From Deltaproteobacteria bacterium (GTDB taxonomy: Bacteria; Desulfobacterota; Binatia; HRBIN30): 62,439 nucleotides of DNA. The translations under genes were made by a program, and so were the position numbers. The stretch lies in contig JAGDMS010000001.1 in NCBI GenBank assembly GCA_017860575.1, positions 1 to 62,439 on the forward strand, in the 5' to 3' direction. The notes below the pieces were generated by a model that was given only the letters and a program-made list of their open reading frames with translations, was not told the origin of the DNA and did no database searches. This document shows, piece by piece, positions 8,176 through 20,127 of the stretch. Each line of letters opens with the position of its first letter. Positions within the stretch are counted from its first letter, which is position 1.

Positions 8176-9303
8176 TCATTCCGCTGCGTCGCCCGTGAGG
8201 CGCTGCAGCCGTTCGATGGCTTCGAAGTACTCGTCCACCAATTGCCGCATGGTCGCCTTGACCGGGCGCATGGCGTTGATCTGGCCAACGATCTGTCCCG
8301 CCGGGTTGAACATTACGTCTCTGGCTTTGTCCGCGTAGCGGTGCATGCGCGCCATGGCGTCTGCGGTGACCATGCCCTGGAGCGGCATTCCCAAGGGCTT
8401 GGGCGCCTCGGGCGCCTCCCATGCCTCGGTCCAGTCGTTGCGCAGCATGCGAGCGGTCTTGCCGGTGAACGACCGCGAGCGCACGGTGTCTCGACTCCCG
8501 GCGTTGAGTAGCAGATCCTTTTGGACCGGGGTTAAATCCGACTCTTGCGTGGTCAGCCAGAGGGAGCCGGTCCACACGCCTTGTGCCCCCATGGCCAGCG
8601 CCGCCGCGATCTGCGCGCCACTGCCGATACCGCCGGCCGCAAGGACCGGGGTGGGGGCCACGGCATTGATCACCTCCGGCCACAGCACGACGCTACCGAT
8701 CTCACCGGTGTGGCCGCCCCCTTCGTATCCTTGTGCGATGACGACATCCACCCCTGCCGCCTGGTGCGCCAGCGCTTGCTTGGCGGAGCCGCACAGGGCC
8801 GCCACCAGGCGCCCGGTCTGGTGGATTTCCTGCACGATGTCCGCAGGCGGCGTCCCCAACGCATTGGCAATCAGCCGGACCTTGTCGTGCTTGAGTCCCA
8901 TGCGGAGCAGCGGCGTCGCGGTTGCTGCCGTCCACCCAAGCAGGACGTTCAATTTCTCCCCCTCCGGCAACCTCGGGACGCTATGATCCGCGAGGATCTT
9001 GTCGGCGAACGCCCGGTGTTCGGGGGGAATCATGGCATTCAGCTGCTGCTCCAGCTTTGCTGGATCCATTTCCCCTTTGCCCTCGTACTTGCCGGGGATG
9101 ACGATATCGATGCCGTAGGGCTTGTCCCCGACATGCTCATCGACCCACGTCAGCGCGGTCTCACATTGTTCCGGCAAAAAGCCGTTGAGCCCCAGAACCC
9201 CAAACCCCCCGGCCCTGCTCACCGCAGCGACAACGTCGCGGCAGTGACTGAAAGCAAAGATCGGGAACTCGATTCCCAACTTGCGGCACAGTTCGGTACG
9301 CAT
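8176..9303 (-). CDS. Nitronate monooxygenase (NMO / 2-nitropropane dioxygenase family)
   Basis: LGIEFPIFAFSH..., VIAQGYEGGGHTGEIGS and VLAAGGIGSGAQIAAALAMGAQGVWTGS are NMO FMN-barrel motifs. GAGGAGAGGAAA RBS. Confidence 0.85.
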   Translation of the reverse strand: MRTELCRKLGIEFPIFAFSHCRDVVAAVSRAGGFGVLGLNGFLPEQCETALTWVDEHVGDKPYGIDIVIPGKYEGKGEMDPAKLEQQLNAMIPPEHRAFADKILADHSVPRLPEGEKLNVLLGWTAATATPLLRMGLKHDKVRLIANALGTPPADIVQEIHQTGRLVAALCGSAKQALAHQAAGVDVVIAQGYEGGGHTGEIGSVVLWPEVINAVAPTPVLAAGGIGSGAQIAAALAMGAQGVWTGSLWLTTQESDLTPVQKDLLLNAGSRDTVRSRSFTGKTARMLRNDWTEAWEAPEAPKPLGMPLQGMVTADAMARMHRYADKARDVMFNPAGQIVGQINAMRPVKATMRQLVDEYFEAIERLQRLTGDAAE

Positions 9304-9537
9304 GCGTTTCCTCTCCTCAATTTGGGGTCAGCACCATGCTTCGACAGGTTCAGCATGAGCGGATCCCGTCGCCAATTCCACTATCCTTTTCCGGTCATCC
9401 TGATTTTGTCAAAGCGTCGACAATTCGGCAATTCGATCGCTTGTTCGGCTGGCCACCCTGTGGTAGCGCTTCGGCACCCGGATTGTCTGATCGACTTGTT
9501 GGTTCATCGAGCTTCAAAGCAGTAAAGGAGTCCCCTC

Positions 9538-9987
9538 ATGTCCGACGAGATTCTGAGCGCCGAGTTCGAGCTGGGCTTCACATACACCCGCTCGCCCGGT
9601 CCCGTCATCGGCAAGTTCCTCGCCGCCCTGCAGCAACGGCGCTTGTATGGCATCCGGGGCAGCGACGGGCGCGTGCTTTTCCCGCCAACCGAGTATGACC
9701 CGCTGACGGGCGCTGACTTGCGCGACTACGCACCCGTCGCCGAGGAGGGAGCGGTGGTGGCCTGGACCTGGGTGCGTACCCCGCGCCGCCATCATCTCCT
9801 GCGCCAACCCTTCGCCTGGGCCCTGGTCAAACTCGACGGCGCCGATACGCCGTTTCTGCATATGGTGGTCTCTGACTCCGAAGCCGACATCCACGCGGGC
9901 CTGCGCGTGAGCGTGCGCTGGGCGGACGAGCGCCGCGGTGCGATCACGGACATCGCCTGGTTCGAACCCGTCAGGAAGGAGGCGTAG
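9538..9987 (+). CDS. DUF35 OB-fold protein (thiolase-associated), zinc-ribbon cysteines absent
   Basis: The layout is typical DUF35: FLAALQQRRLYGIRGSDGRVLFPP followed by an OB-fold (ALVKLDGADTPFLHMVV...GLRVSVRW). AAGGAG RBS. Confidence 0.8.
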   Translation: MSDEILSAEFELGFTYTRSPGPVIGKFLAALQQRRLYGIRGSDGRVLFPPTEYDPLTGADLRDYAPVAEEGAVVAWTWVRTPRRHHLLRQPFAWALVKLDGADTPFLHMVVSDSEADIHAGLRVSVRWADERRGAITDIAWFEPVRKEA

Positions 9988-9990
9988 CCG

Positions 9991-10518
9991 ATGGATATCG
10001 ATCTTGAACCGGTTGCGGTGTTCGAGGCACCGATTTACCTCCGCTACCACGCCACCTCGGCGCGCGCGATTACGCCCTTCCTGCACGCGCTCAGGCGGGG
10101 CATCCTGCTCGGACACCGGTCTCCCGCCACCGGCAAGGTCTTGTTCCCGCCGTTGGGCTCCTGCCCGGAGAGCGGACAACCGACGAGCGAAGAGGTCGTC
10201 CTGGCGGACACGGGAACGATCATCAGCTTTACCACCGTGCACCTGGCAATTCCCGGTAGCAAATTGAAACCGCCGTTTACCGTCGCCAACATCATGCTCG
10301 ACGGCGCGGACCAATTCTTCAGCCACCTCGTGAGCGGTTGCGCGCTCGAGGATGTCGCCATCGGCATGCGCGTCCGTGCCAAGTGGCGACCGGCGTCCGA
10401 GTGGGGCTACAGTCTCGAGAACATCGAGTATTTTGTGCCGACCGGCGAACCGACGGTGGATATCCCCACACTCAAGGCGGAGCGCCTCAGATTGGCGCAG
10501 GAGCGCCGCCATGCGTGA
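9991..10518 (+). CDS. DUF35 OB-fold protein, second copy
   Basis: FLHALRRGILLGHRSPATGKVLFPP...FTVANIMLDGADQFFSHLV...GMRVRAKW. GGAGG RBS; the stop overlaps the next start (ATGCGTGA). Confidence 0.8.
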   Translation: MDIDLEPVAVFEAPIYLRYHATSARAITPFLHALRRGILLGHRSPATGKVLFPPLGSCPESGQPTSEEVVLADTGTIISFTTVHLAIPGSKLKPPFTVANIMLDGADQFFSHLVSGCALEDVAIGMRVRAKWRPASEWGYSLENIEYFVPTGEPTVDIPTLKAERLRLAQERRHA

Positions 10519-11566
10519 CGTCGCCATCATGGGGTACGCCCAGTCGCCGCAGGTCCGCGAGGCCCGCGGGCTCAACGAAGTCGAGATGCTCATGCCGGTG
10601 CTGCAGGCAGCCCTGGCAGACGCGCACATGACTCTGGCCGACATCGATTTCGTGTGCTCCGGCTCCTGCGACTACATCGCTGGGGGGGCGTTCTCGTTTG
10701 TCGGCGCACTAGATGCGGTCGGCGCCACGCCGTGCATGCAGGAGTCGCACGTCGAGATGGATGCCGCCTGGGCACTTTACGAGTCGTGGTTGAAGATCCA
10801 GAGCGGCCACATCAGGACGGCGCTGATTTACGGCTTTGCCAAGGCCTCCAACGGCTCGCTGCCCGACATCCTGTCGCAGCAACTCGACCCGTACTACCTG
10901 GCGCCGCTGTGGCCCGACAGCATCAGCCTGGCAGCGCTGCAGGCCAATCTTCTGCTGCAGACCGGCCGGTATGCGCAGCGCGACTTTGCCGAGGTCGTGG
11001 TCGACAGCCGCCGGCACGCACTGGCGAACCCAAACGCACAATTGAAGGGTGAGGTGACTGTCGAGGCCCTGTTGGCGGAACCGATGCTGGCGCCTCCGCT
11101 ACGCAAGCACGACTGCTGCCCCATCAGCGACGGCGCCTCGGCGATGGTGATCGCTGCAGGCGAGGTGGCGCAATCGCTCGCCGACCGGCCGGTGTACATC
11201 CGCGGCATCGATCACCGCATGGAGGTGCACCAACTCGGCCAGCGTGACCTGACCACGTCCGTCTCGACGCGGCAGGCGGCCGACCGCGCCGGCGTGGGTG
11301 AGGACAAGATCGAACTGGCGGAATTGTACGCCCCGTTCAGCCCGCAGACCCTCATCCTCCAAGAATCTTTGGGGCTCCGCCCTGACGTGGTGGTCAATCC
11401 TTCCGGCGGCCCGCTGGCAGGCCACATTTTCATGTGCGCCGGGCTGGATCGGTTTGGTGAGGCAGCACGACGGATTCGCGCGGGCACCGCCGACCGGGCG
11501 GTTGCGCATGCGACCTCCGGACCGTGCCTGCAGCACAACATGGTCGCCGTGCTGGAGGGGAAGTAA
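10511..11566 (+). CDS. Thiolase-fold protein (SCP-x/Ltp-like), canonical nucleophile Cys not evident
   Basis: In-frame ATG at 10511 gives MRDVAIMGYAQSP.... NPSGGPLAGH lies in the C-terminal half. The position where thiolases carry CxS reads HVEMDAAWAL. Confidence 0.85.
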   Translation: MRDVAIMGYAQSPQVREARGLNEVEMLMPVLQAALADAHMTLADIDFVCSGSCDYIAGGAFSFVGALDAVGATPCMQESHVEMDAAWALYESWLKIQSGHIRTALIYGFAKASNGSLPDILSQQLDPYYLAPLWPDSISLAALQANLLLQTGRYAQRDFAEVVVDSRRHALANPNAQLKGEVTVEALLAEPMLAPPLRKHDCCPISDGASAMVIAAGEVAQSLADRPVYIRGIDHRMEVHQLGQRDLTTSVSTRQAADRAGVGEDKIELAELYAPFSPQTLILQESLGLRPDVVVNPSGGPLAGHIFMCAGLDRFGEAARRIRAGTADRAVAHATSGPCLQHNMVAVLEGK

Positions 11567-11567
11567 C

Positions 11568-12731
11568 ATGGCGCATCGTGTTGCCGTCGTGGGCGTCGGA
11601 CAGACAGTTCGCTATCGGACGAAGATCAATGCCTCGCTCGCGGGCCTGGTGCGTGAGGCGGCCCTCGAGGCACTGGCCGACGCGGAGTGCACGTGGAGTG
11701 ACATCGACGCCCTGATCCTGGGTAAGGCGCCCGACATGTTCGAAGGCGTCGTCATGCCGGAGATCTACCTGGCGGAGGCGCTAGGCGGCGTGGGTAAGCC
11801 GGTCTTGCGCGTGCACACCGCTGGCAGCGTGGGGGGCTCCACCGCGATCGTGGCGGCCACACATGTGGCCAGCGGCCTGTTCAAGCGTGTGCTCACGGTC
11901 ACCTTCGAAAAGCAATCCGAATCCAACGCGCACTGGGCGCTGTCTCCGTCCCTACCTTTTCGCGCACACTTCAACTCCGGTGCGGGGGGCATGTTCGCCC
12001 CCATCCTGCGCGAGTACATCCATCGCAATCGCTGCCCGGCGGACGTTGGCTGCATGGTGGCGCTGAAAGATCGCAAGCACGCTTTGCGCAATCCGCGGGC
12101 GCATCTACAAATCAAAGATATCAGTTTGCAAATGGTGAAAGACTCGCCAATGCTGTGGGAGCCCATCCGCTTTTTGGAAACCTGTCCCTCATCGGACGGT
12201 GCTTGCGCACTCGTGCTGTGCAGCGAGGATTTGGCGGAGCGCTCGGTGCGGCCGCCCGCTTGGGTGCACGGCATGGCGATGCGCTCCGAGCCGGGATTCT
12301 ACCCCTGGCGCGAGGAAGTGTATCCCCACGCCACGCGGGAGTGCGCCAAGGATCTGTACCAGCAGGCCGGGATCCAGAACCCGCGCAAGGATTTCGACGT
12401 GGCGGAGGTCTACGTGCCGTTCTCCTGGTTCGAGCCCCTGTGGCTGGAGAACCTGGGTTTCGCCGATCGTGGCCAGGGCTGGAAGCTCACCGAGACCGGC
12501 GCCACGTCCCTGGACCAGGGCGGCGACATCCCTTGGAACTGTTCCGGCGGGGTATTGTCGTCGAACCCAATCGGCGCGTCCGGGATGATCCGCTTCGCCG
12601 AGGCGGCATTGCAGGTGCGCGGCATGGCCGGCGCCCACCAGGTGGACGGCGCGCGCAAGGCCCTGGGCCACGCTTACGGTGCCCACAATCAATTCTTCGC
12701 CATGTGGGTCGTCGCGGCCGACAAGCCGTGA
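11568..12731 (+). CDS. Thiolase-fold protein (lipid-transfer/SCP2-thiolase type), second subunit
   Basis: ATG at 11568 lies 1 nt after the previous TAA: MAHRVAVVGVGQT.... CSGGVLSSNPIGASGMIRFAEAALQVRG matches the Ltp-type C-terminal motif. The nucleophile region reads VHTAGSVGGSTAI and has no Cys. Confidence 0.85.
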   Translation: MAHRVAVVGVGQTVRYRTKINASLAGLVREAALEALADAECTWSDIDALILGKAPDMFEGVVMPEIYLAEALGGVGKPVLRVHTAGSVGGSTAIVAATHVASGLFKRVLTVTFEKQSESNAHWALSPSLPFRAHFNSGAGGMFAPILREYIHRNRCPADVGCMVALKDRKHALRNPRAHLQIKDISLQMVKDSPMLWEPIRFLETCPSSDGACALVLCSEDLAERSVRPPAWVHGMAMRSEPGFYPWREEVYPHATRECAKDLYQQAGIQNPRKDFDVAEVYVPFSWFEPLWLENLGFADRGQGWKLTETGATSLDQGGDIPWNCSGGVLSSNPIGASGMIRFAEAALQVRGMAGAHQVDGARKALGHAYGAHNQFFAMWVVAADKP

Positions 12732-12770
12732 GATGGCACCCGGCGGGACGCACGGATTAGCGGAGATTCA

Positions 12771-12800
12771 TTGACGTATCACTCGACCGTGTCGTAGCAT
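12771..12800 (+). promoter_or_regulatory. Sigma70-like promoter candidate (TTGACG-18 nt-TAGCAT)
   Basis: TTGACG at 12771-12776 and TAGCAT at 12795-12800, in the 210-nt gap ahead of the ferredoxin operon. Pattern match only. Confidence 0.3.
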
Positions 12801-12941
12801 GCAACGCGCTGGTCATCTGAACGGCGAAGCAATGAGTTACAGCGAGGGTCGTTGGGCTGTGCCCGTACCGTTCCGAGAACACGTGGAACCCTGGTCCGGT
12901 GGCAGTCGAGGACGAGTCGGTGGCTCGAAGGGAGGCCGGGA

Positions 12942-13532
12942 GTGTTGCAGGTCAAATTCATCGCTCACGTCGACCGCGCCAAGTGCAGCGGTTGCAAGCT
13001 GTGTGAGAAGGTCTGCCTGACCGACACGATCAAGGTCGTCAACAAAGTAGCTGTGGTCGACGATGACTGCCTCGGCTGCACGCGGTGCGTCGACATCTGC
13101 TGGCACGACGAGGCGGTCGTCATGGTGCCGCGACCGACTCCACGTTACGTCGGCACCGACGTCAACGAGGTCGATGCCGAGCAGGTGCGGGGGCTGTGTG
13201 CGCAGGCGCATCGGTTGCCCGGCGAACTGGTGTGCGTGTGCGCCAACACCAGTGCGGGAGAAATCGCCGCCGCCATCATCAAGGGCGCGCGATCCTTCAA
13301 GGAACTCTCGTTTGCCACCGGCGTCCTGCAGGGCTGCCAGGAGTTCTGTGTCCCGCCAATTCAGCGCATGCTCAAGGTGAAGGGCGTCGATGTCACCAAG
13401 GCCGGAGGCTTCCTGAAGTACGACCAGACGCTGTCGATGTGGGACATTCCGAAAGCGGCCCAGGAGCGCTTCGAGTACCACTTTGCGGAGGATCTCGCGC
13501 TGGCGACGAAGAGTCGGGAAGGAGGAGAGTGA
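12942..13532 (+). CDS. Ferredoxin: 2x[4Fe-4S] motifs plus BFD-like [2Fe-2S]-type segment
   Basis: GTG at 12942 follows GGGAGG. Motifs are CSGCKLCEKVC and CLGCTRCVDIC, then VCVCANTSAGEI...GCQEFC resembling a BFD-like domain. Confidence 0.75.
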   Translation: MLQVKFIAHVDRAKCSGCKLCEKVCLTDTIKVVNKVAVVDDDCLGCTRCVDICWHDEAVVMVPRPTPRYVGTDVNEVDAEQVRGLCAQAHRLPGELVCVCANTSAGEIAAAIIKGARSFKELSFATGVLQGCQEFCVPPIQRMLKVKGVDVTKAGGFLKYDQTLSMWDIPKAAQERFEYHFAEDLALATKSREGGE

Positions 13533-14971
13533 TGCTCAAGCCCGCGGTGCCGCCACCACCCTTTATCAAGTCCGCCTACGGGCCGGCACCCCGCGCGCAA
13601 CGTGCCGCCGACCTGCCGAGCTTCGCCTCGGTCGCGGTGCGCGACCTGTTTCCCGACATTGTGCCGGCGATTTATCGCGAAGAGGTCGATCTGCCCGCCA
13701 TCCGGCAGGCGACCGAGCGTGCCCTGGCCGGCGTCGACATGAGCATGATTCGGCCCGGGGATACCGTGAATGTCGCGTCGTGCGAGCACGGCTTCTCCAT
13801 CATGGGCGGCCGGCCTTACGCCGAGATGCTCAAGACCATCCGCGACGTGGTGCGCGAGCGCACAGGCTGTGAAAAGATCCGCTTGCGCGTCGGCTCGTGG
13901 CAGGGCTATCGCGAGGCGGCGGAAGGCATCGCGCAGCTCGGACTGGAGGCGCATTACGGCAAGGGGCGGGCCACCGGCTTCGGCCCGACCGACAAAGGGG
14001 TACCGATCGAAACCGCGGTCGGCACGTTTTACGGCATCCAGCGGGTGTACGATGCCACCTGGTTCATCCACGCCTATTACGATGACGCCCGCGAGATCTA
14101 CCTGCACCGCTACACCTTCCGCCCCTTCAAAGCGTTCATGATGGCGTACGCCCGCCAGGAAACCCGCGGGCTGCTGCACATGTACCCCAACCGCAGCGGC
14201 AATTTCCTCCACAAGGCGGTGTTCGAATCGCCGTTCGTGCAGCAGCGCTACGCCTTCACCTGCTTGCTGCGCTCGTCGCCGGACGGCATCACCGGGATCG
14301 AGGCCAACCGCGACCTCTACGAGATCAATCGTCACATCATCCGCGACCATCTGCGGGATTACGGCAAGATGCTCAAGCTGTTCGAATCCATCGATGAGTG
14401 CGTGCCCATCATCGACGGTGGGCGCTGGCTCTTCTACATCCCGGCCGGTGGGCTGACGTTCTGCGAGCTCCTTTACGGTACGCGCGACAATCTCGACCTG
14501 ACGAACCCCTATACCACCGCGGCATGGGACATTCGCGATCCGGATATCATGGCGTTGACGAACCCCGCGATCCGAGCCCTGGTCATCAACCAGATGTGGC
14601 GCGGGATCCCATGCGCCGGAATCACCTGGCGCTACCCGACGGCACTGGTCGGCCAGGACCTCACCGACATGTTCGACCAGGATGCGTCCAGCCCTGGCCT
14701 GGTCAGTGCCGTGATGACCATGGATACGCTCGAGCAGGCCGTGGACTGGGCGAAACAGACCGCGGGCACGGACCGTCTGATCGCCTTTGACGGTAGTTTC
14801 GGCCACATCAACTGCAGCCCTTCCATGGGAGAGTACCTCATCCGCAAGGCTCCAGAGGTGATCCGCAAGGTCGATGCGGAGCTTCCGAAATGGCTCAAGC
14901 AGCGTGGGCTGAGCCCGGAGATTCCGCCACCGTCATTTCGGCCAGCGAGCGAGGAGGCGACCGTCGCTTGA
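13532..14971 (+). CDS. Hypothetical 479-aa protein, no confidently recognisable domain
   Basis: ATG overlaps the upstream stop (TGATG) and a GGAAGGAGGAG RBS precedes it. Composition is balanced and globular (MLKPAVPPPPFIKSAYG...). The opposite-strand ORF 13361..14806 is R/A/G/H-rich shadow. Confidence 0.75.
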   Translation: MLKPAVPPPPFIKSAYGPAPRAQRAADLPSFASVAVRDLFPDIVPAIYREEVDLPAIRQATERALAGVDMSMIRPGDTVNVASCEHGFSIMGGRPYAEMLKTIRDVVRERTGCEKIRLRVGSWQGYREAAEGIAQLGLEAHYGKGRATGFGPTDKGVPIETAVGTFYGIQRVYDATWFIHAYYDDAREIYLHRYTFRPFKAFMMAYARQETRGLLHMYPNRSGNFLHKAVFESPFVQQRYAFTCLLRSSPDGITGIEANRDLYEINRHIIRDHLRDYGKMLKLFESIDECVPIIDGGRWLFYIPAGGLTFCELLYGTRDNLDLTNPYTTAAWDIRDPDIMALTNPAIRALVINQMWRGIPCAGITWRYPTALVGQDLTDMFDQDASSPGLVSAVMTMDTLEQAVDWAKQTAGTDRLIAFDGSFGHINCSPSMGEYLIRKAPEVIRKVDAELPKWLKQRGLSPEIPPPSFRPASEEATVA

Positions 14972-15846
14972 CCGCGATGCGCGTCAGCGTGCCCGACTTA
15001 CGGGACGAGATCCTCCGCAGCGTGGCGGGCAAGCAGGTGGTGGCCTGCATCATCGTCGAGGACGATGGCATCCTGGCGGAGTCCGACGCCGTGGCGAGCG
15101 AGGCGTGCCGCCTGGGACTGCGCTTGCAGCGCATCAGTACCGACGGCCCCGTGCGCCAGGGCGACGAAATCGTCCGCTTCGTCGGTAGTGCCAAGCAAAT
15201 TGCCATCGCCGAGGACGTCCTGATCGGGGTCATGGCCAAGGCATCCGGGATCGCCACCGCAGCACGGCGCTTTGTCGACCAGGCAGGCGGTCGGCCGAAG
15301 ATCGTCAGCGGCGCCTGGAAGAAGATGCCCGCGTCACAGAAGGAGAGCATCCGTCGCGCCGTGCTGCTGGGCGGCGCCTCCTGCCGGATCACCGACCGTC
15401 CCTTCGTCTATCTCGACAAGAATTACATCCGCATGCTCGGCGGCATCGTCAGCAGCCTCGCAGCTGTGGCCGGGTTCGCCGACCGCGAGAAGGTCGTCCA
15501 GCTCAAAGGCCGCTACCAGGACATTATGCAGGAGGCCGCCGAAGCGGTGGGCGCGGGCGCCGATCTCCTTCACATCGATTCGGGACGGCCCGATGACGTC
15601 AACCGCGTCAGCCAAGCCTTGCGCCAGCTCGGTCTGCGCCACCAGGTGCGCCTGGCCTTCGGCGGCAATGTGCGGCTCGAGGACCTCGACCGGTTGCGGA
15701 TGCTGGACATCGATATCTTGGATATCGGCCGCCAGATCGTGGACGCCCCACTTCTCGACATGCGGATGGAGGTGTGCGGCGTTGCCGATACGCAGGAAGC
15801 ACGCGAGGGGTGCGCGGACCATGCAGCCGTACCATCTCCTGCATAA
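14968..15846 (+). CDS. Divergent type-II phosphoribosyltransferase fold protein (QPRT / ModD-like)
   Basis: TTG at 14968 overlaps the upstream TGA (TTGA), 10 nt after GAGGAGG; ATG at 14977 is an alternative. AKASGIATAARRFV, LLGGASCR, GAGADLLHIDSG and LAFGGNVRLEDL follow the order of QPRT/ModD motifs, but the canonical substrate residues differ. Confidence 0.7.
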   Translation: MTAMRVSVPDLRDEILRSVAGKQVVACIIVEDDGILAESDAVASEACRLGLRLQRISTDGPVRQGDEIVRFVGSAKQIAIAEDVLIGVMAKASGIATAARRFVDQAGGRPKIVSGAWKKMPASQKESIRRAVLLGGASCRITDRPFVYLDKNYIRMLGGIVSSLAAVAGFADREKVVQLKGRYQDIMQEAAEAVGAGADLLHIDSGRPDDVNRVSQALRQLGLRHQVRLAFGGNVRLEDLDRLRMLDIDILDIGRQIVDAPLLDMRMEVCGVADTQEAREGCADHAAVPSPA

Positions 15847-16792
15847 GACCGAGCTCAAGATCGAGCGCATCACGCTACGCGGCGCCAACCTGACCGAACT
15901 GGCGGCGGTCGTGGCGGATACGTTATCTTTGGAGCGCGAGAAGGTCTTGGTCATCGACGTCCGCGACGACACCGTCGCACTCGACATTCTCCAGGAGCGC
16001 GTCGACGCCGACAGCATCGTCGGCAAACAAGACTTGCTATTGCGGCGCCTGTCCGCGCTGCCTGGCGTCGGCATCACGGCGCAGACACGGTGTTCCTCCG
16101 ACGGGATGCTGGGGTGGATCGCTTGGGACGAAGCGGAGGGACGACAAGCGCTGCGGCATTCCGAGAAGATCGCCGCCGCGGTTCGCCGCACCCTGTCCCG
16201 CCGCGCCATTGTCTTTTCGACTGGTGCCGAGGTCGTCGCCGGTCGAATCCAGGATACGAACACGCCCGCCATCGCGCGGCGGCTCGAGGCCGAGGGTTAT
16301 TCCGTGACGCGGGGCGCCACGCTCGGTGACGACGTGGATCTCATCTTCGCGTATCTGCGCACCGCGGTGGAGGATGATGGCTACGGCCTGGTGATTACGA
16401 CGGGCGGGACCGGTGCGGAGGACAAGGACTGTACGGTTGAGGCGATCCAGGCAGTCGATCCGGATGCCGCCACTCCGGTTCGGCAGGCGCGACTTGGCGG
16501 AGACGATTGCCGAGACCCTCCGCGCCTTGCTGCGCGCGCGATCGAGCCAGCCATCCCACGCCCATCATGCGCAGCACGGTTGAGGCGTGGAGCCTCTCGG
16601 ACCACACGCGCAAAACATTCGGCTACCGTCAAGGCAGCCATCCGTCGACCGAGGCGAGTTGGGGAGCATCAAGATGTCCGAGCAATTTCCACGTCTCTTC
16701 TCACCCATGCAGATTGGCTCCATGACCGTGCGCAACCGTATCGTCATGAGCGCACATGTCACGGGGCACGCCCTGGATTTTGTGCCCAATGA
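15821..16792 (+). CDS. CinA(COG1058)/MoaB-like MoCF_biosynth half-domain with unique N-terminal region; 3' end doubtful
   Basis: MQPYHLLHKTELKIERITL..., then AIVFSTGAEVVAGRIQDTNTPAIARRLEAEGYSV...LVITTGGTGAEDKDCTVEA matches the CinA/MoaB N-terminal half. After ~16475 the frame becomes R/P/A-rich and overlaps the next gene by 119 nt, so only ~15821-16475 is credible coding sequence. Confidence 0.6.
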   Translation: MQPYHLLHKTELKIERITLRGANLTELAAVVADTLSLEREKVLVIDVRDDTVALDILQERVDADSIVGKQDLLLRRLSALPGVGITAQTRCSSDGMLGWIAWDEAEGRQALRHSEKIAAAVRRTLSRRAIVFSTGAEVVAGRIQDTNTPAIARRLEAEGYSVTRGATLGDDVDLIFAYLRTAVEDDGYGLVITTGGTGAEDKDCTVEAIQAVDPDAATPVRQARLGGDDCRDPPRLAARAIEPAIPRPSCAARLRRGASRTTRAKHSATVKAAIRRPRRVGEHQDVRAISTSLLTHADWLHDRAQPYRHERTCHGARPGFCAQ

Positions 16793-18626
16793 TCGCATCA
16801 TCGCCTACTGGGCGGCCCGGGCGCGCGGGGGGGTGGGCCTGATCGGCATGCAGTTGCACTGGGTACACGCGGTCCCCGAACGGAATCCCTTCTACCACCC
16901 GCAGATGCTCGATGGGTTGCGGCGAGCGGCGGAGGCGGTGCATGCCCATGGGGCAAAGATCACGTGTCAGATCGGCAACATGGGCGCCGAAATGGGCCAC
17001 TTTGGCTTTCCGTCCCCATGGGCCCCGTCGGCGGTACTGGGGCCGAATAGTTGGGCGGAGGTGTTCATGGCCCATACGATGACCACCGACGAGATCAAGG
17101 GCATGATCGACAGCTTCGTGCACGCGGCGTTGCTGGTACAGCAAGCGGGGATCGACGGAGTGGAACTGCACAACGCGCACGGGTATCTGCTCAACGAATT
17201 CATGTCGCCGCACTGGAATGCGCGCACCGACGAATACGGCGGCTCGCTCGAAAATCGGATGCGCCTGCCCCTCCAGGTCATCAATGCGGTGCGCGCGGCC
17301 GTGGGGCCCGATTTTGCGGTCGGCATGCGCATCAGCGGCGATGAATTCGTGCCCGGCGGCTATACCCTCGACGACATGCGCACCATGGCGCCCCTGCTGA
17401 CCCACAACGGCAAACTCGACTTCCTCAATGTCAGCGCCGGCAACTACCTGTACGCCTCCACTGTCGTCGATCCGATGTACTATCCGCTGAACTCCTTCGT
17501 GCAGTGCGCGGCGGCGATTAAGGCGGTCGTCGATGTGCCCGTGTTTGCCCGCGGACGCATCATCGATCCGCAGCAGGCGGAGCAGATCCTCGCCGACGGC
17601 CATGCCGATATGGTGAGTATGGTGCGGGCAAACATCGCGGACCCGGAGTTCGCCAACAAGGCGCGCACCGGCCGCACTGACGAGATTAGAACGTGCATCG
17701 GTTGCAATGAAGGTTGCTGGGGGCAGGTTGCCCGGTTTCACATGGACGGTATGAGCTGTACGATGAATCCTGCCACGGGCCGCGAACACCTGCCCGGGTG
17801 GGAGGTCTTGCAGCCGGCGGCGGTGAGAAAGCACGTCATGGTCATCGGAGGCGGTCCGGCCGGGTTGGAGACCGCCAGGGTCGCAGCGGAGCGCGGGCAC
17901 CGGGTCTCACTTTACGAGCGCGGTGCCGAACTGGGCGGCCAGACGTTGGTCGCCGCCAAAGCCCCGGGGCGCGAGAGCTTCCTCGACCTGGTGCGGTATT
18001 ACAGCCACCAGATGCGTCTGCTCAACGTGGCGGTGCACCTGGGCACCGAAGCGACCGCACAAACGGTGCAGGCCGAGTCACCCGACGCGGTAGTGGTAGC
18101 CACCGGGTCGGCGCCGTACTTTCCCCGTTTTCCCGGCGCCGAAGGAGCAAACGTAGTCGAGGTCAGAACGGTGCTCAATGGCGCTGCGGTGGTTGGTGAT
18201 CGCGTCATCATCGTTGCGCTCGACAACGACATCCAGTCATTGAGCTGCGCCGACTTTTTGGCCGAACGCGGCAAGCAGGTGGAAGTGCTCGGGCGGAACT
18301 ATGATTTCGGCTCGAAGCTCGACTCCGCCACGAAGCACGCGATTCACCAACGGCTGTACCGGCACGGCATCACCCTCACGCCCAACACCGGCGTCAAGGA
18401 GATCCACGGACGGACCGTGGTCACCTACAATGTGTTCACGGAAGCGGAGAGGCGGATCGACGGCGTGGACACCGTGGTCATCGCCTGCGGGGGACAGGAG
18501 GACAACGCCTTGTATTGCTCCCTGAAGGCGCAGGTGGGCGAGATCCATCTTGCCGGCGACGCCAATGGCGTCCGGCGGATATCTGATGCCACCTTGGACG
18601 GGGCGATCGTCGGCAGGGCACTGTAG
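16674..18626 (+). CDS. OYE-like FMN + [4Fe-4S] + FAD/NAD(P) oxidoreductase (2,4-dienoyl-CoA reductase / BaiCD-BaiH type)
   Basis: ATG at 16674 follows GGGGAG: MSEQFPRLFSPMQIGSMTVRNRIVMSAH. ELHNAHGYLLNEF, CIGCNEGCWG and VIGGGPAGLE are present. Confidence 0.9.
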   Translation: MSEQFPRLFSPMQIGSMTVRNRIVMSAHVTGHALDFVPNDRIIAYWAARARGGVGLIGMQLHWVHAVPERNPFYHPQMLDGLRRAAEAVHAHGAKITCQIGNMGAEMGHFGFPSPWAPSAVLGPNSWAEVFMAHTMTTDEIKGMIDSFVHAALLVQQAGIDGVELHNAHGYLLNEFMSPHWNARTDEYGGSLENRMRLPLQVINAVRAAVGPDFAVGMRISGDEFVPGGYTLDDMRTMAPLLTHNGKLDFLNVSAGNYLYASTVVDPMYYPLNSFVQCAAAIKAVVDVPVFARGRIIDPQQAEQILADGHADMVSMVRANIADPEFANKARTGRTDEIRTCIGCNEGCWGQVARFHMDGMSCTMNPATGREHLPGWEVLQPAAVRKHVMVIGGGPAGLETARVAAERGHRVSLYERGAELGGQTLVAAKAPGRESFLDLVRYYSHQMRLLNVAVHLGTEATAQTVQAESPDAVVVATGSAPYFPRFPGAEGANVVEVRTVLNGAAVVGDRVIIVALDNDIQSLSCADFLAERGKQVEVLGRNYDFGSKLDSATKHAIHQRLYRHGITLTPNTGVKEIHGRTVVTYNVFTEAERRIDGVDTVVIACGGQEDNALYCSLKAQVGEIHLAGDANGVRRISDATLDGAIVGRAL

Positions 18627-18646
18627 ACGCGGACGGGAGGGAAGCG

Positions 18647-19150
18647 ATGACCATCGATGAACTGATCTCCAGAGAGGAAATCCACGACGTGCTGAAGCGG
18701 CTGGCCCGCGGCACCGATCGACTCGACGCCGATCTGATCATCTCTTGCTATCACCCGGACGGCTATGACGATCACAACAATTTCCGCGGCTCGCCTGTCG
18801 AATTCGCCCGGTGGGTCTGCGAGGTACTCCCGGGATTTGAGGCCACCATGCACTGTATCGGCGCGCCGCTGATCGAGCTGACCGGCGATACGGCGCAGGT
18901 GAACACCTATTGCGTTGCCCATCACTTGATGGGCCAGGGCCCGCACGGCGCGCGGGGCGATTTCGTGCTCGGCCTGCGCTACGTGGATCGGTTCGAGCGC
19001 CGCAACGGCCGGTGGCTCATCGCCAAGCGCGTCTGCGCCTTTGACTGGTCGTACACCGTTCCGATCGCGGGCGCACCCAACGCCTGGTTCGGCGAGGATT
19101 TCACCGTCGGCGCGCGGGACCGCACGGACATCACGTACCGCAGGGTGTGA
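18647..19150 (+). CDS. NTF2-fold protein (SnoaL_4-like)
   Basis: EEIHDVLKRLARGTDRLDADLIISCYHPDG...YVDRFERRNGRWLIAKR is the typical pattern. It lies 20 nt downstream of the reductase. Confidence 0.75.
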   Translation: MTIDELISREEIHDVLKRLARGTDRLDADLIISCYHPDGYDDHNNFRGSPVEFARWVCEVLPGFEATMHCIGAPLIELTGDTAQVNTYCVAHHLMGQGPHGARGDFVLGLRYVDRFERRNGRWLIAKRVCAFDWSYTVPIAGAPNAWFGEDFTVGARDRTDITYRRV

Positions 19151-19164
19151 GCGCCGCCATCGCG

Positions 19165-20127
19165 CTAGGCATACAGCCGCGGCTCGCCGGGTGGTCGCGT
19201 CTTCCAGCGCTTGTGAAACCAGATCCACTGCTCCGGGTAGCGTCGGATCATGTCTTCGAGGACGGCGGTGCAGCGCTGGGTCGTGATGCGAATGTCGTCC
19301 TCCCGATTGCCGGTCGATGCCACCTCGACATCGGGCAGTATCTCGACGCGGTGCCGGCCGCTTTCCCCTTCGCGCACGAGAAACACCGGGAGGATGGGTG
19401 CGCCGGTCAACATCGCCAGACGCGCCGGTCCCGGCGTCGTGCAGGCGGCGAGCCCGAAGAAATCGACGAACACACCGAAACTGAAGACCTGATTCTGGTC
19501 GGCCGGCACCACCAGGATCCCGTGCTGCTTCAGCACGCGCAGCGCCTCCTTGGCCGCCGCCCGCTTCTCGATCGCGCGCGTCCCCGCCTTGCTGCGGACG
19601 ACACGGATGGCCTCGTTGAACACCTTGTTGCGCATCGCGCGATGCACCAGCGTGATGGGATGCCCCAGTAAGCCGTGGGCATACGCCAGCAACTCCCAGT
19701 TGCCGAAGTGGCCGGTCAGGATGACCATGCCGGTCTTTCCGGCCCGTTCGAGCGCGTGTTCCCAGGCCGGGCGGTCTGCGAACGTCACGAGGTGAGGCAA
19801 TTCCTCGGCAGTCAGCCGTGGCAGGTGGCAGAACTCCGCACCCAGGCGCCCGAGGTTCCGGGAGCTCGCGCGCAATATGCGCCGCCGCTCCGCAAGCGAT
19901 TTCTCCGGAAAGGCCAACTGCAGATTGAACAGCGCAACGCGCCGGGCGCGTGCAGCGACCACGTACAACAGTTCCCCGATGCATGCGCCGACGCGCAGTG
20001 CCACCGTAAGCGGCAGCGCCGCAAAGAAGATAAAGGCCGCACGAAAGACGGCGTACTCGATCCGGTCCGTCAGTGCGACGCGATGGACCACGTGTGCCGG
20101 TTCCGAGGGCGCCTGCGCCTGGCTCAT
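19165..20127 (-). CDS. Lipid A biosynthesis (LpxL/HtrB-type) lysophospholipid acyltransferase family protein
   Basis: N-terminal TM segment, GHFGNWELL (HX4-type acyltransferase motif), PADQN, and RYPEQWIWFHKRWK at the C-terminus. Confidence 0.8.
   Translation of the reverse strand: MSQAQAPSEPAHVVHRVALTDRIEYAVFRAAFIFFAALPLTVALRVGACIGELLYVVAARARRVALFNLQLAFPEKSLAERRRILRASSRNLGRLGAEFCHLPRLTAEELPHLVTFADRPAWEHALERAGKTGMVILTGHFGNWELLAYAHGLLGHPITLVHRAMRNKVFNEAIRVVRSKAGTRAIEKRAAAKEALRVLKQHGILVVPADQNQVFSFGVFVDFFGLAACTTPGPARLAMLTGAPILPVFLVREGESGRHRVEILPDVEVASTGNREDDIRITTQRCTAVLEDMIRRYPEQWIWFHKRWKTRPPGEPRLYA

Follow-up and report, generated by a model that had tools for sequence, protein, structure and literature searches.

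A widespread four-gene unit that probably encodes an undescribed class of enzymes using a nickel-pincer cofactor

In a 62,439-nucleotide stretch of contig JAGDMS010000001.1 from a bacterium of the class Binatia (GenBank assembly GCA_017860575.1), the whole of which is called the window in the following, four overlapping genes encode a ferredoxin (P1), a protein of 479 residues (P2, hereafter X479), a quinolinate phosphoribosyltransferase-like protein (P3, QPRT-like) and a protein with a MoCF_biosynth domain (P4, MoCF-like), which raises the question of what these four proteins might do together. An earlier note, made from the letters alone, had read them as a translationally coupled unit of non-canonical family members, and this has held: the TGATG at 13530-13534 joining P1 and P2, the TTGA at 14968-14971 joining P2 and P3, and the 26-nt overlap of P3 and P4 (ATG of P4 at 15821, TAA of P3 at 15844-15846) were all reproduced, and dozens of species from at least six phyla share the linkage of these genes. 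The GGAGG-type ribosome-binding sites that had been assigned to all four genes are found 5′ of P1, P2 and P3, but the site of P4 is weaker (GAGGGG with a 12-nt spacer). As argued below, the four-gene set probably encodes an undescribed enzyme class that uses the rare nickel-pincer cofactor.

A scan with X479 over one genome per species returned 294 relatives. Of the 87 loci compared (L numbers), 78 come from this species scan and nine were obtained by contig look-ups; the neighbourhood statistics are based on the first 84. The linkage of the four genes exceeds chance. With respect to its components, the ferredoxin gene lies immediately 5′ of the X479 gene in 86 of 92 copies, while the QPRT-like and the MoCF-like gene are each present in 55 of the 78 species loci, many of the loci that lack them being short contigs, and their placement relative to the ferredoxin-X479 pair differs among loci. 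X479 is found in Binatia, Desulfobacterota, Actinomycetota, Bacillota, Myxococcota, Chloroflexota, sphingomonads, Pseudomonas and Mycobacterium, and the closest relative of the window protein, at 93% identity, resides in the Binatia locus L007.

By sequence comparison X479 is isolated. That it has no assignable family, as noted earlier, is confirmed by the lack of any Pfam, NCBIfam or PDB sequence match for the window protein. A comparison of 34 members with Pfam at E ≤ 10 gave nothing relevant and no LarA, searches of the PDB by single sequence as well as by profile returned noise only and no LarA, and an exhaustive profile search of 1.84 billion protein representatives yielded 233 matches within the family itself, mostly fragments, and no bridge to LarA; likewise, tblastn of plasmids gave no match. 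The homologues number more than 438, every one of them unnamed or 'hypothetical' in public records, and no account of the gene combination turned up in the literature searches. The predicted structure, in contrast, is informative. According to an alignment-based AF2 model (pLDDT 90.3, pTM 0.91), X479 has the two-domain alpha/beta fold of LarA (DUF2088/Lar_N, IPR048068), a lactate racemase whose homologues are racemases and epimerases of 2-hydroxyacids. LarA is the only significant fold match in the PDB: the top six Foldseek matches (8ezf, 5huq, 2yjg, 7s91, 9eid and 9q3j) are all LarA-family proteins of the nickel-pincer nucleotide (NPN) type, with probability 1.00 and E-values from 1.8e-8 to 8.2e-6, whereas the next-best match has an E-value of 2.4e-3 and a TM score of 0.18, and all non-LarA matches have E ≥ 2e-3 and TM ≤ 0.2.

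Although no sequence similarity to LarA is detectable, the motifs of the two families are collinear, namely S-[D/E]-H, K-x15-H, [N/D]GG...Y and a C-terminal T[L/M][D/E]xA...G. In an hhalign comparison of about 1% probability, made with a small LarA alignment and running from residues 14-425 of X479 along residues 6-422 of LarA, K200 and H216 of X479 pair with K184 and H200 of LarA, E85 with D72, DGG...Y302 with NGG...Y294, and T(M/L)(D/E)xA...DG with the C-terminal motif. K200, H216 and Y302 are invariant in 99 of 99 family sequences, E85 is found in 71 of 99, and the spacing of 16 residues between K200 and H216 is the same as that between K184 and H200. Because of the low hhalign probability these equivalences rest on register and not on statistics. 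In LarA, K184 is the tether of NPN, H200 a nickel ligand, and D72 binds the ribose of the cofactor (PMC12611868). The earlier note had found X479 faintly reminiscent of LarA and had considered the cofactor-binding residues to be missing; the likeness is borne out by the Foldseek ranking, whereas the supposed absence is called into question by the invariant Lys/His pair that aligns, at about 1% probability, with K184 and H200. Canonical-type LarA homologues of 433 aa, 22-28% identical to LarA, are encoded a few kb from the module in two loci (L080:14351-15652 and L081:4980-6281); they have an apparent Gly in place of the tethering Lys (GGSGM) and keep the nickel-binding His.

Like LarA, X479 is associated with larB, larE and larC in several lineages. 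Clustering of the neighbouring genes and scoring against the NCBIfam cut-offs (given second) identified LarB (244/175 bits), LarE (243/150), LarC (151/90) and NadD (160/150). A lar gene lies within 8 kb of the module in 15 of the 78 species loci, in at least five lineages and in different gene orders, and nadD is found beside it in 13 of the 78; by a rough estimate, the chance expectation for lar-carrying loci is well below one. In sphingomonads a single co-directional block comprises the genes for the ferredoxin, X479, the MoCF-like protein, a 206-aa membrane protein, NadD, LarE, LarB, LarC and the QPRT-like protein, and in Mycobacterium sp. E796 the order is ferredoxin, X479, MoCF-like, QPRT-like, LarE, LarB and LarC. 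In Pseudomonas sp. GM21 the genes for NadD, LarE, LarB and LarC come after two ferredoxin-X479-MoCF units; LarC and/or LarB are encoded near the module in the Desulfoscipio and Moorella-group loci, and in four actinobacterial or acidobacterial loci nadD adjoins the QPRT-like gene. The gene that separates the MoCF-like gene from nadD in sphingomonads codes for the conserved 206-aa membrane protein (motif LHALDADH; L052:10268-10918 and other loci), which matched no Pfam or NCBIfam model; that it might be a nickel transporter is a guess.

Gene fusions point in the same direction. In Pseudomonas sp. GM21 (L034) one open reading frame (ORF) encodes a LarC nickel-insertion domain (LarC1; profile positions 3-231 of 375) that is followed on its C-terminal side by a QPRT-like domain, and this LarC1::QPRT-like fusion is also found in P0391-P0394 (counted as three further database clusters). 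Fusions of the MoCF-like with the QPRT-like protein occur in five clusters (P0400, P0407, P0418, P0470 and P0472), and P0418 is encoded directly 3′ of a ferredoxin-X479 pair. In the proteobacterial loci, that is, sphingomonads and Pseudomonas, LarC consists of LarC1 only, with no LarC2 domain found within 8 kb; the QPRT-like protein sits where LarC2 would, either fused to LarC1 as in Pseudomonas or encoded immediately 3′ of the LarC1-only gene as in sphingomonads. LarC1-only proteins of about 243 aa are encoded at L052:12978-13706, L034:15579-17129 and in relatives, and short ones of 285-320 aa are plentiful in the protein database.

LarC is a CTP-dependent nickel insertase, in which LarC2 CMPylates the cofactor precursor before LarC1 inserts the nickel (PMC13510736). 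An adenylylation of the MogA type followed by metal insertion would parallel this scheme, and by analogy the MogA-type and QPRT-like folds could supply activation or loading, although both are unrelated to the fold of LarC2. However, in the Mycobacterium and Moorella loci a full-length LarC occurs together with the QPRT-like and MoCF-like proteins, and therefore these helpers are not a plain substitute for LarC2.

The distribution of these genes also bears on an alternative hypothesis, according to which the QPRT-like and MoCF-like proteins make a different pyridinium nucleotide cofactor for X479, one without nickel, and the nearby lar and nadD genes reflect a shared precursor pool only. The QPRT-like and MoCF-like genes, present in 55 of the 78 loci each as compared to 15 of 78 for lar, are in favour of this scenario, as is the remodelling of the base-binding residues throughout the QPRT-like family (see below). 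We nevertheless regard it as unlikely, as the lar genes of sphingomonads lie inside the module, co-directional and between the MoCF-like and QPRT-like genes, those of Mycobacterium sp. E796 follow directly 3′ of the QPRT-like gene in the same direction, there are fusions of the QPRT-like protein with LarC1, the nickel-insertion domain, and a Lys/His pair of the type found in NPN binders is invariant in X479.

A further alternative starts from DUF362 (PF04015), which has been described in iron-sulfur proteins and together with ferredoxin domains, and for which itself we know of no function. X479 might accordingly be a scaffold of the LarA/DUF362 clan that carries no nicotinate-derived cofactor and operates in direct concert with the Fe-S protein, as is assumed for DUF362 proteins fused to ferredoxin domains, with the two helpers as structural subunits. 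Apart from the ferredoxin connection of DUF362, the scenario draws on the membership of DUF362 and DUF2088 (LarA) in one Pfam clan, CL0471 (PMC11770544), and on the majority of loci in which no lar genes are seen nearby. Yet none of the 34 X479 members compared matches PF04015, even at E ≤ 10, and the embedding among lar and nadD genes, the LarC1 fusion and the invariant Lys/His pair would be left unaccounted for, which makes it very unlikely.

As to the helpers, P3 shares the type II phosphoribosyltransferase fold and both Pfam domains with NadC and ModD (QRPTase_C, 58.2 bits; QRPTase_N, 29.6 bits; both above the gathering scores), but it differs from them in equivalog scores and in its active site. 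Against the nadC model (TIGR00078) it scores 89.3 bits where the cut-off is 198.4, and against modD (TIGR01334) 20.6 bits with a cut-off of 178.85. The motif replacements formerly recognised by eye (TRKT to AWKK, HR to CR and KDNH to DKNY) recur in phmmer alignments to yeast and human QPRT and are conserved in 61-62 of 63 relatives, the family signature being GAWKK / xR / YLDKN / Q178 / DTG. In particular, the Arg of TRKT is replaced by Trp and that of AER by Asp or Glu, the Lys of KDNH is shifted, and the catalytic Glu has become an invariant Gln (Q178); hence the arginines that hold the quinolinate carboxylates are lost, while equivalents of the Lys, Arg and Asp as well as the GG loops for ribose 5-phosphate are kept. 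Since the substituted motifs are family-wide, P3 is neither NadC nor ModD, both of which were rejected on the residue replacements and the sub-cut-off scores, in agreement with the earlier view that it is not an ordinary NadC. It may instead bind or process a pyridinium mononucleotide in the supply or loading of the cofactor.

The MoCF-like gene is broken in the present contig by a deletion. Only profile positions 2-80 of 144 of the Pfam MoCF_biosynth model are matched by the window P4, which had been taken for a unique N-terminus fused to the first half of a CinA/MoaB-type domain. Alignment with the syntenic relative L006 (82% identical) and with L085, a near-identical contig, shows that 158 nt are missing from the window after position 16476, which shifts the frame. 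The P4 homologue of L006 comprises 306 aa, as do P0121, P0122, P0124 and P0125, which are 100% identical to the window P4 over its first 218 residues; one of these four identical proteins is encoded on L085, where the gene order is the same, the DNA is near-identical on both sides of the deletion, and the comparison reveals a TCCG microhomology at the junction. The missing 158 nt encode the family-invariant GxGRHxK and LPGP motifs, and the remnant 3′ of the junction still encodes the original C-terminal helix (...LAETIAETLRALLRARS...). Given the gap and the intact 306-aa relatives, the half domain reflects either a deletion allele or an error of assembly and not a real architecture, and a genuine 'truncated CinA' was ruled out by the L006 and L085 alignments together with the intact homologues. 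Nor does P4 end at 16600 as previously stated: the ORF as written extends to 16792 (323 aa), with the original stop at 16581-16583 now in a different frame.

Intact P4 has a full MoCF domain as found in MogA, MoaB and CinA, with TTGG(V/T)GxxxKD and LPGP motifs; the fused MoCF-like relatives match profile positions 2-139 of 144, and the model of the intact P0121 matches Mog, Cnx1G, the MoeA domain and CinA in Foldseek (E about 1e-7 to 1e-8). It differs from these proteins by a conserved, family-specific N-terminal domain of about 125 aa, for which no match was found, and by the lack of the CinA C-terminal deamidase domain, no second Pfam domain being detected. All NCBIfam equivalog scores, obtained with the truncated copy of the window, are far below the cut-offs (e.g., 31.7 bits vs 222 for moaB_proteo and 30.3 vs 243 for cinA_nterm). 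In contrast to MogA and MoaB, it is tied to nickel-pincer and not to molybdenum cofactor genes, and the molybdenum cofactor link once drawn from ModD and MoaB relatives is not supported by the neighbours and fusions. From the Pfam domain names alone, the locus might still be taken for housekeeping genes (NadC, MoaB/CinA and a ferredoxin) that came to lie beside a hypothetical protein by chance. This is almost certainly wrong and can be regarded as refuted, as the scores are far under the equivalog cut-offs, the canonical QPRT residues are replaced family-wide, the synteny extends across phyla and fusions join the partners.

P1 has two CxxCxxCxxxC motifs for [4Fe-4S] clusters and a BFD-type [2Fe-2S] domain, three clusters thus being predicted. 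In line with its earlier identification as an Fe-S/BFD protein, it matches the Pfam models Fer2_BFD (40.6 bits, cut-off 26), Fer4 and 4Fe-4S dicluster; the BFD cysteines C98, C100, C132 and C136 are kept in 96-97 of 97 relatives, and the eight dicluster cysteines are mostly conserved. P1 is a proposed electron-transfer partner of X479, and this nearly constant three-cluster ferredoxin partner, together with the QPRT-like and MoCF-like companions that LarA does not need, sets X479 apart from LarA.

The copy numbers within single genomes help to define the relation of the four proteins. Some genomes harbour two to four ferredoxin-X479 pairs and one QPRT-like gene; L008/L044, L010/L045 and L009/L030 each represent two loci of one metagenome-assembled genome (MAG), and in sphingomonads and Pseudomonas the duplicated unit is ferredoxin-X479-MoCF. 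Multiplied pairs combined with a single QPRT-like gene fit a catalytic pair with shared helpers and not a linear four-step pathway. The module contexts are catabolic, comprising TetR/IclR regulators, transporters, short-chain dehydrogenases/reductases (SDRs), CoA ligases and transferases, thiolase/DUF35 pairs and OYE enzymes, and in Bacillota BenE with 2-oxopent-4-enoate hydratase, aldolase and acetaldehyde dehydrogenase. The earlier reading, that the four proteins are consecutive enzymes of a redox-coupled pathway making or modifying a nucleotide-derived cofactor or small molecule to be used elsewhere, therefore keeps its redox component and its link to pyridine nucleotides but becomes less convincing as a pathway. 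It is true that the QPRT-like and MoCF-like folds are typical of nucleotide and cofactor biosynthesis and that nadD and lar genes adjoin the module in some loci. However, the position of the modules in catabolic clusters (including thiolases and the 2-oxopent-4-enoate lower pathway), the copy numbers, and a fold of X479 that is that of a cofactor-using and not of a known biosynthetic enzyme leave this explanation only a small chance.

We therefore favour, with a confidence somewhat better than even, the reading that the unit consists of a ferredoxin-coupled NPN-type oxidoreductase and two dedicated cofactor-handling proteins. X479 would carry an NPN-type cofactor tethered via Lys200, with His216 as nickel ligand, and, lacking the two racemisation histidines of LarA, it would probably perform only a hydride-transfer half-reaction on a hydroxy or oxo substrate. 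Through the two [4Fe-4S] clusters and the single [2Fe-2S] cluster of the ferredoxin, electrons would pass between the cofactor and an external donor or acceptor, so that the redox step hidden in LarA catalysis would become a net oxidation or reduction. The two helpers, QPRT-like and MoCF-like, might act jointly on a pyridinium (di)nucleotide, be it in its supply, in its activation beside LarC1 or in its loading into X479. More tentatively, and with somewhat less than even confidence, X479 and its ferredoxin could be the founders of a nickel-pincer (NPN or NPAD) class with Fe-S-coupled net redox catalysis in place of racemisation, matured by a MogA-like protein of the nucleotidyl-transferase type and a QPRT-like pyridinium-nucleotide binder that cooperate with LarC2 or, in some lineages, replace it; this would explain part of the genomes with larBCE but without larA. 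Such genomes make up about 15%, and NPN-binding proteins yet to be identified are expected (PMC11796402, PMC13524815).

Several observations weigh against a nickel-pincer enzyme. First, no lar, nadD, AKR (aldo-keto reductase) or nickel-related genes were found in the 62-kb window itself, and the flanks of ± 8 kb are free of lar genes in 63 of the 78 species loci. Second, sequence-level similarity between X479 and LarA is absent from Pfam, from the PDB profile search and from the 1.84-billion-protein profile search, and with an hhalign probability of about 1% the putative equivalence of K200 and H216 follows from register and not from statistics. Third, His108, His174 and the carboxylate/phosphate-binding Arg75 of LarA correspond in X479 to the variable position 127, the invariant R187 and F88, respectively, which speaks against racemase activity as well as a simple site for the carboxylate of a 2-hydroxyacid. 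Fourth, we know of no precedent for the passage of a hydride from NPN to one-electron Fe-S clusters. In addition, the canonical LarA homologue near the L080 module could account for the LarC gene there, and the sphingomonad loci include an AKR, one AKR family being known to use NPN (PMC13524815).

This AKR lies beside the module in nine loci (L052:1229-2248, other sphingomonads, L027, L063 and L072), and its best PDB match is DepB (E 9e-74), an NADPH-dependent 3-keto-deoxynivalenol reductase, so that the sphingomonad AKR is unlikely to be the sole NPN user of its operons. In the Mycobacterium, Pseudomonas, Desulfoscipio and L048/L067 loci, lar genes occur without the sphingomonad-type AKR.

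To our knowledge, the users of nickel-pincer cofactors known so far are the LarA racemases, one AKR family and one ornithine cyclodeaminase only. The AKR family is represented by NphT, an NPN-dependent hydride transferase with a His/Lys cofactor motif that is encoded beside larBCE (PMC13524815). Being likewise a protein beside larBCE that is not annotated as LarA, it resembles X479 and demonstrates that unexplored NPN users exist, but unlike X479 it is a TIM barrel and has neither an Fe-S partner nor QPRT-like or MoCF-like helpers. The neighbourhoods in the NphT study were screened by Pfam families (PMC13524815), and Pfam-based screens would overlook X479 because it belongs to no Pfam family.

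The features of the locus are compiled in Table 1. The order of the upstream DUF35/ChsH2-type and thiolase-like genes is also kept in L006 and L085, and that of the SnoaL_4 gene in L006, L007 and L085. The OYE/FadH gene, an Fe-S flavin reductase, is found near the module in only about ten loci and is missing from the close relative L007, and it therefore belongs to the co-directional catabolic cluster and lies outside the conserved four-gene core. In L007, a Candidatus Binatia MAG, SnoaL_4 follows directly 3′ of the MoCF-like gene (around 10945-11722) with no OYE/FadH gene between them. The best model for the window OYE/FadH protein is the mycofactocin-system OYE_2 (638 bits, cut-off 793), followed by the bile-acid enzyme BaiCD. 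The stretch 5′ of the ferredoxin gene varies: after the second thiolase-like gene, L006 has class-III aminotransferase and SDR genes (L006:6117-8307, compared with window 12732-12925) and L007 an SDR gene, while the window (12732-12941) and L085 have just a spacer of about 210 bp. A promoter and terminator scan of window positions 9300-19400 gave nothing above shuffled expectation.

Table 1. Coordinates of the four-gene unit and its flanking genes in the window.
Feature	Position	Strand	Details and basis
DUF35/ChsH2-type OB-fold genes (two)	9538-9987, 9991-10518	+	Pfam
SCP2-type thiolase-like genes (two)	10511-11566, 11568-12731	+	Pfam
P1, ferredoxin	12942-13532	+	196 aa; ORF list and Pfam
P2 (X479)	13532-14971	+	479 aa; ORF list
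P3, QPRT-like	14968-15846	+	292 aa, TTG start; ORF list and Pfam
P4, MoCF-like, 5′ part	15821-16476	+	frame intact up to the deletion junction
P4, 3′ remnant, out of frame	16477-16583	+	within ORF 16413-16583; L006 and L085 DNA alignments
OYE/FadH-type Fe-S flavoenzyme	16674-18626	+	Pfam Oxidored_FMN, Pyr_redox_2
SnoaL_4 (NTF2-like) protein	18647-19150	+	Pfam SnoaL_4, 86.5 bits

Some lineages show module neighbours of their own. In Bacillota and related anaerobes (L084:4599-7381, L054:10352-13083, L080, L074 and L083) the module operon includes genes for 2-oxopent-4-enoate hydratase, acetylating acetaldehyde dehydrogenase and 4-hydroxy-2-oxovalerate aldolase; an IclR regulator is also present, as are a BenE-type transporter in Moorella, and an Fe-dependent alcohol dehydrogenase (Fe-ADH) and aldehyde:ferredoxin oxidoreductase in Desulfoscipio. 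In Actinomycetota, the QPRT-like and ferredoxin genes are separated by a gene for a conserved protein of 143 aa that matches no family (L001:6953-7384, L002:5135-5566 and six more loci). About 5 kb 3′ of the actinobacterial module, NadA (quinolinate synthase) is encoded in L001:14981-16476 and L002:13163-14658, accompanied by Rrf2, a NifU-like fragment and a cysteine desulfurase, which may be coincidental.

Targets for work on X479 exist in the cultivated Pseudomonas sp. GM21, Mycobacterium sp. E796, Desulfoscipio geothermicus DSM 3669 and Moorella species. If X479 binds the cofactor, this would add a widespread enzyme class, represented in Binatia, Desulfobacterota, Actinomycetota, Bacillota, sphingomonads, Pseudomonas and Mycobacterium, to the users of nickel-pincer cofactors, it would establish the first tie between nickel-pincer chemistry and Fe-S electron transfer, and it would reveal new components of cofactor maturation.

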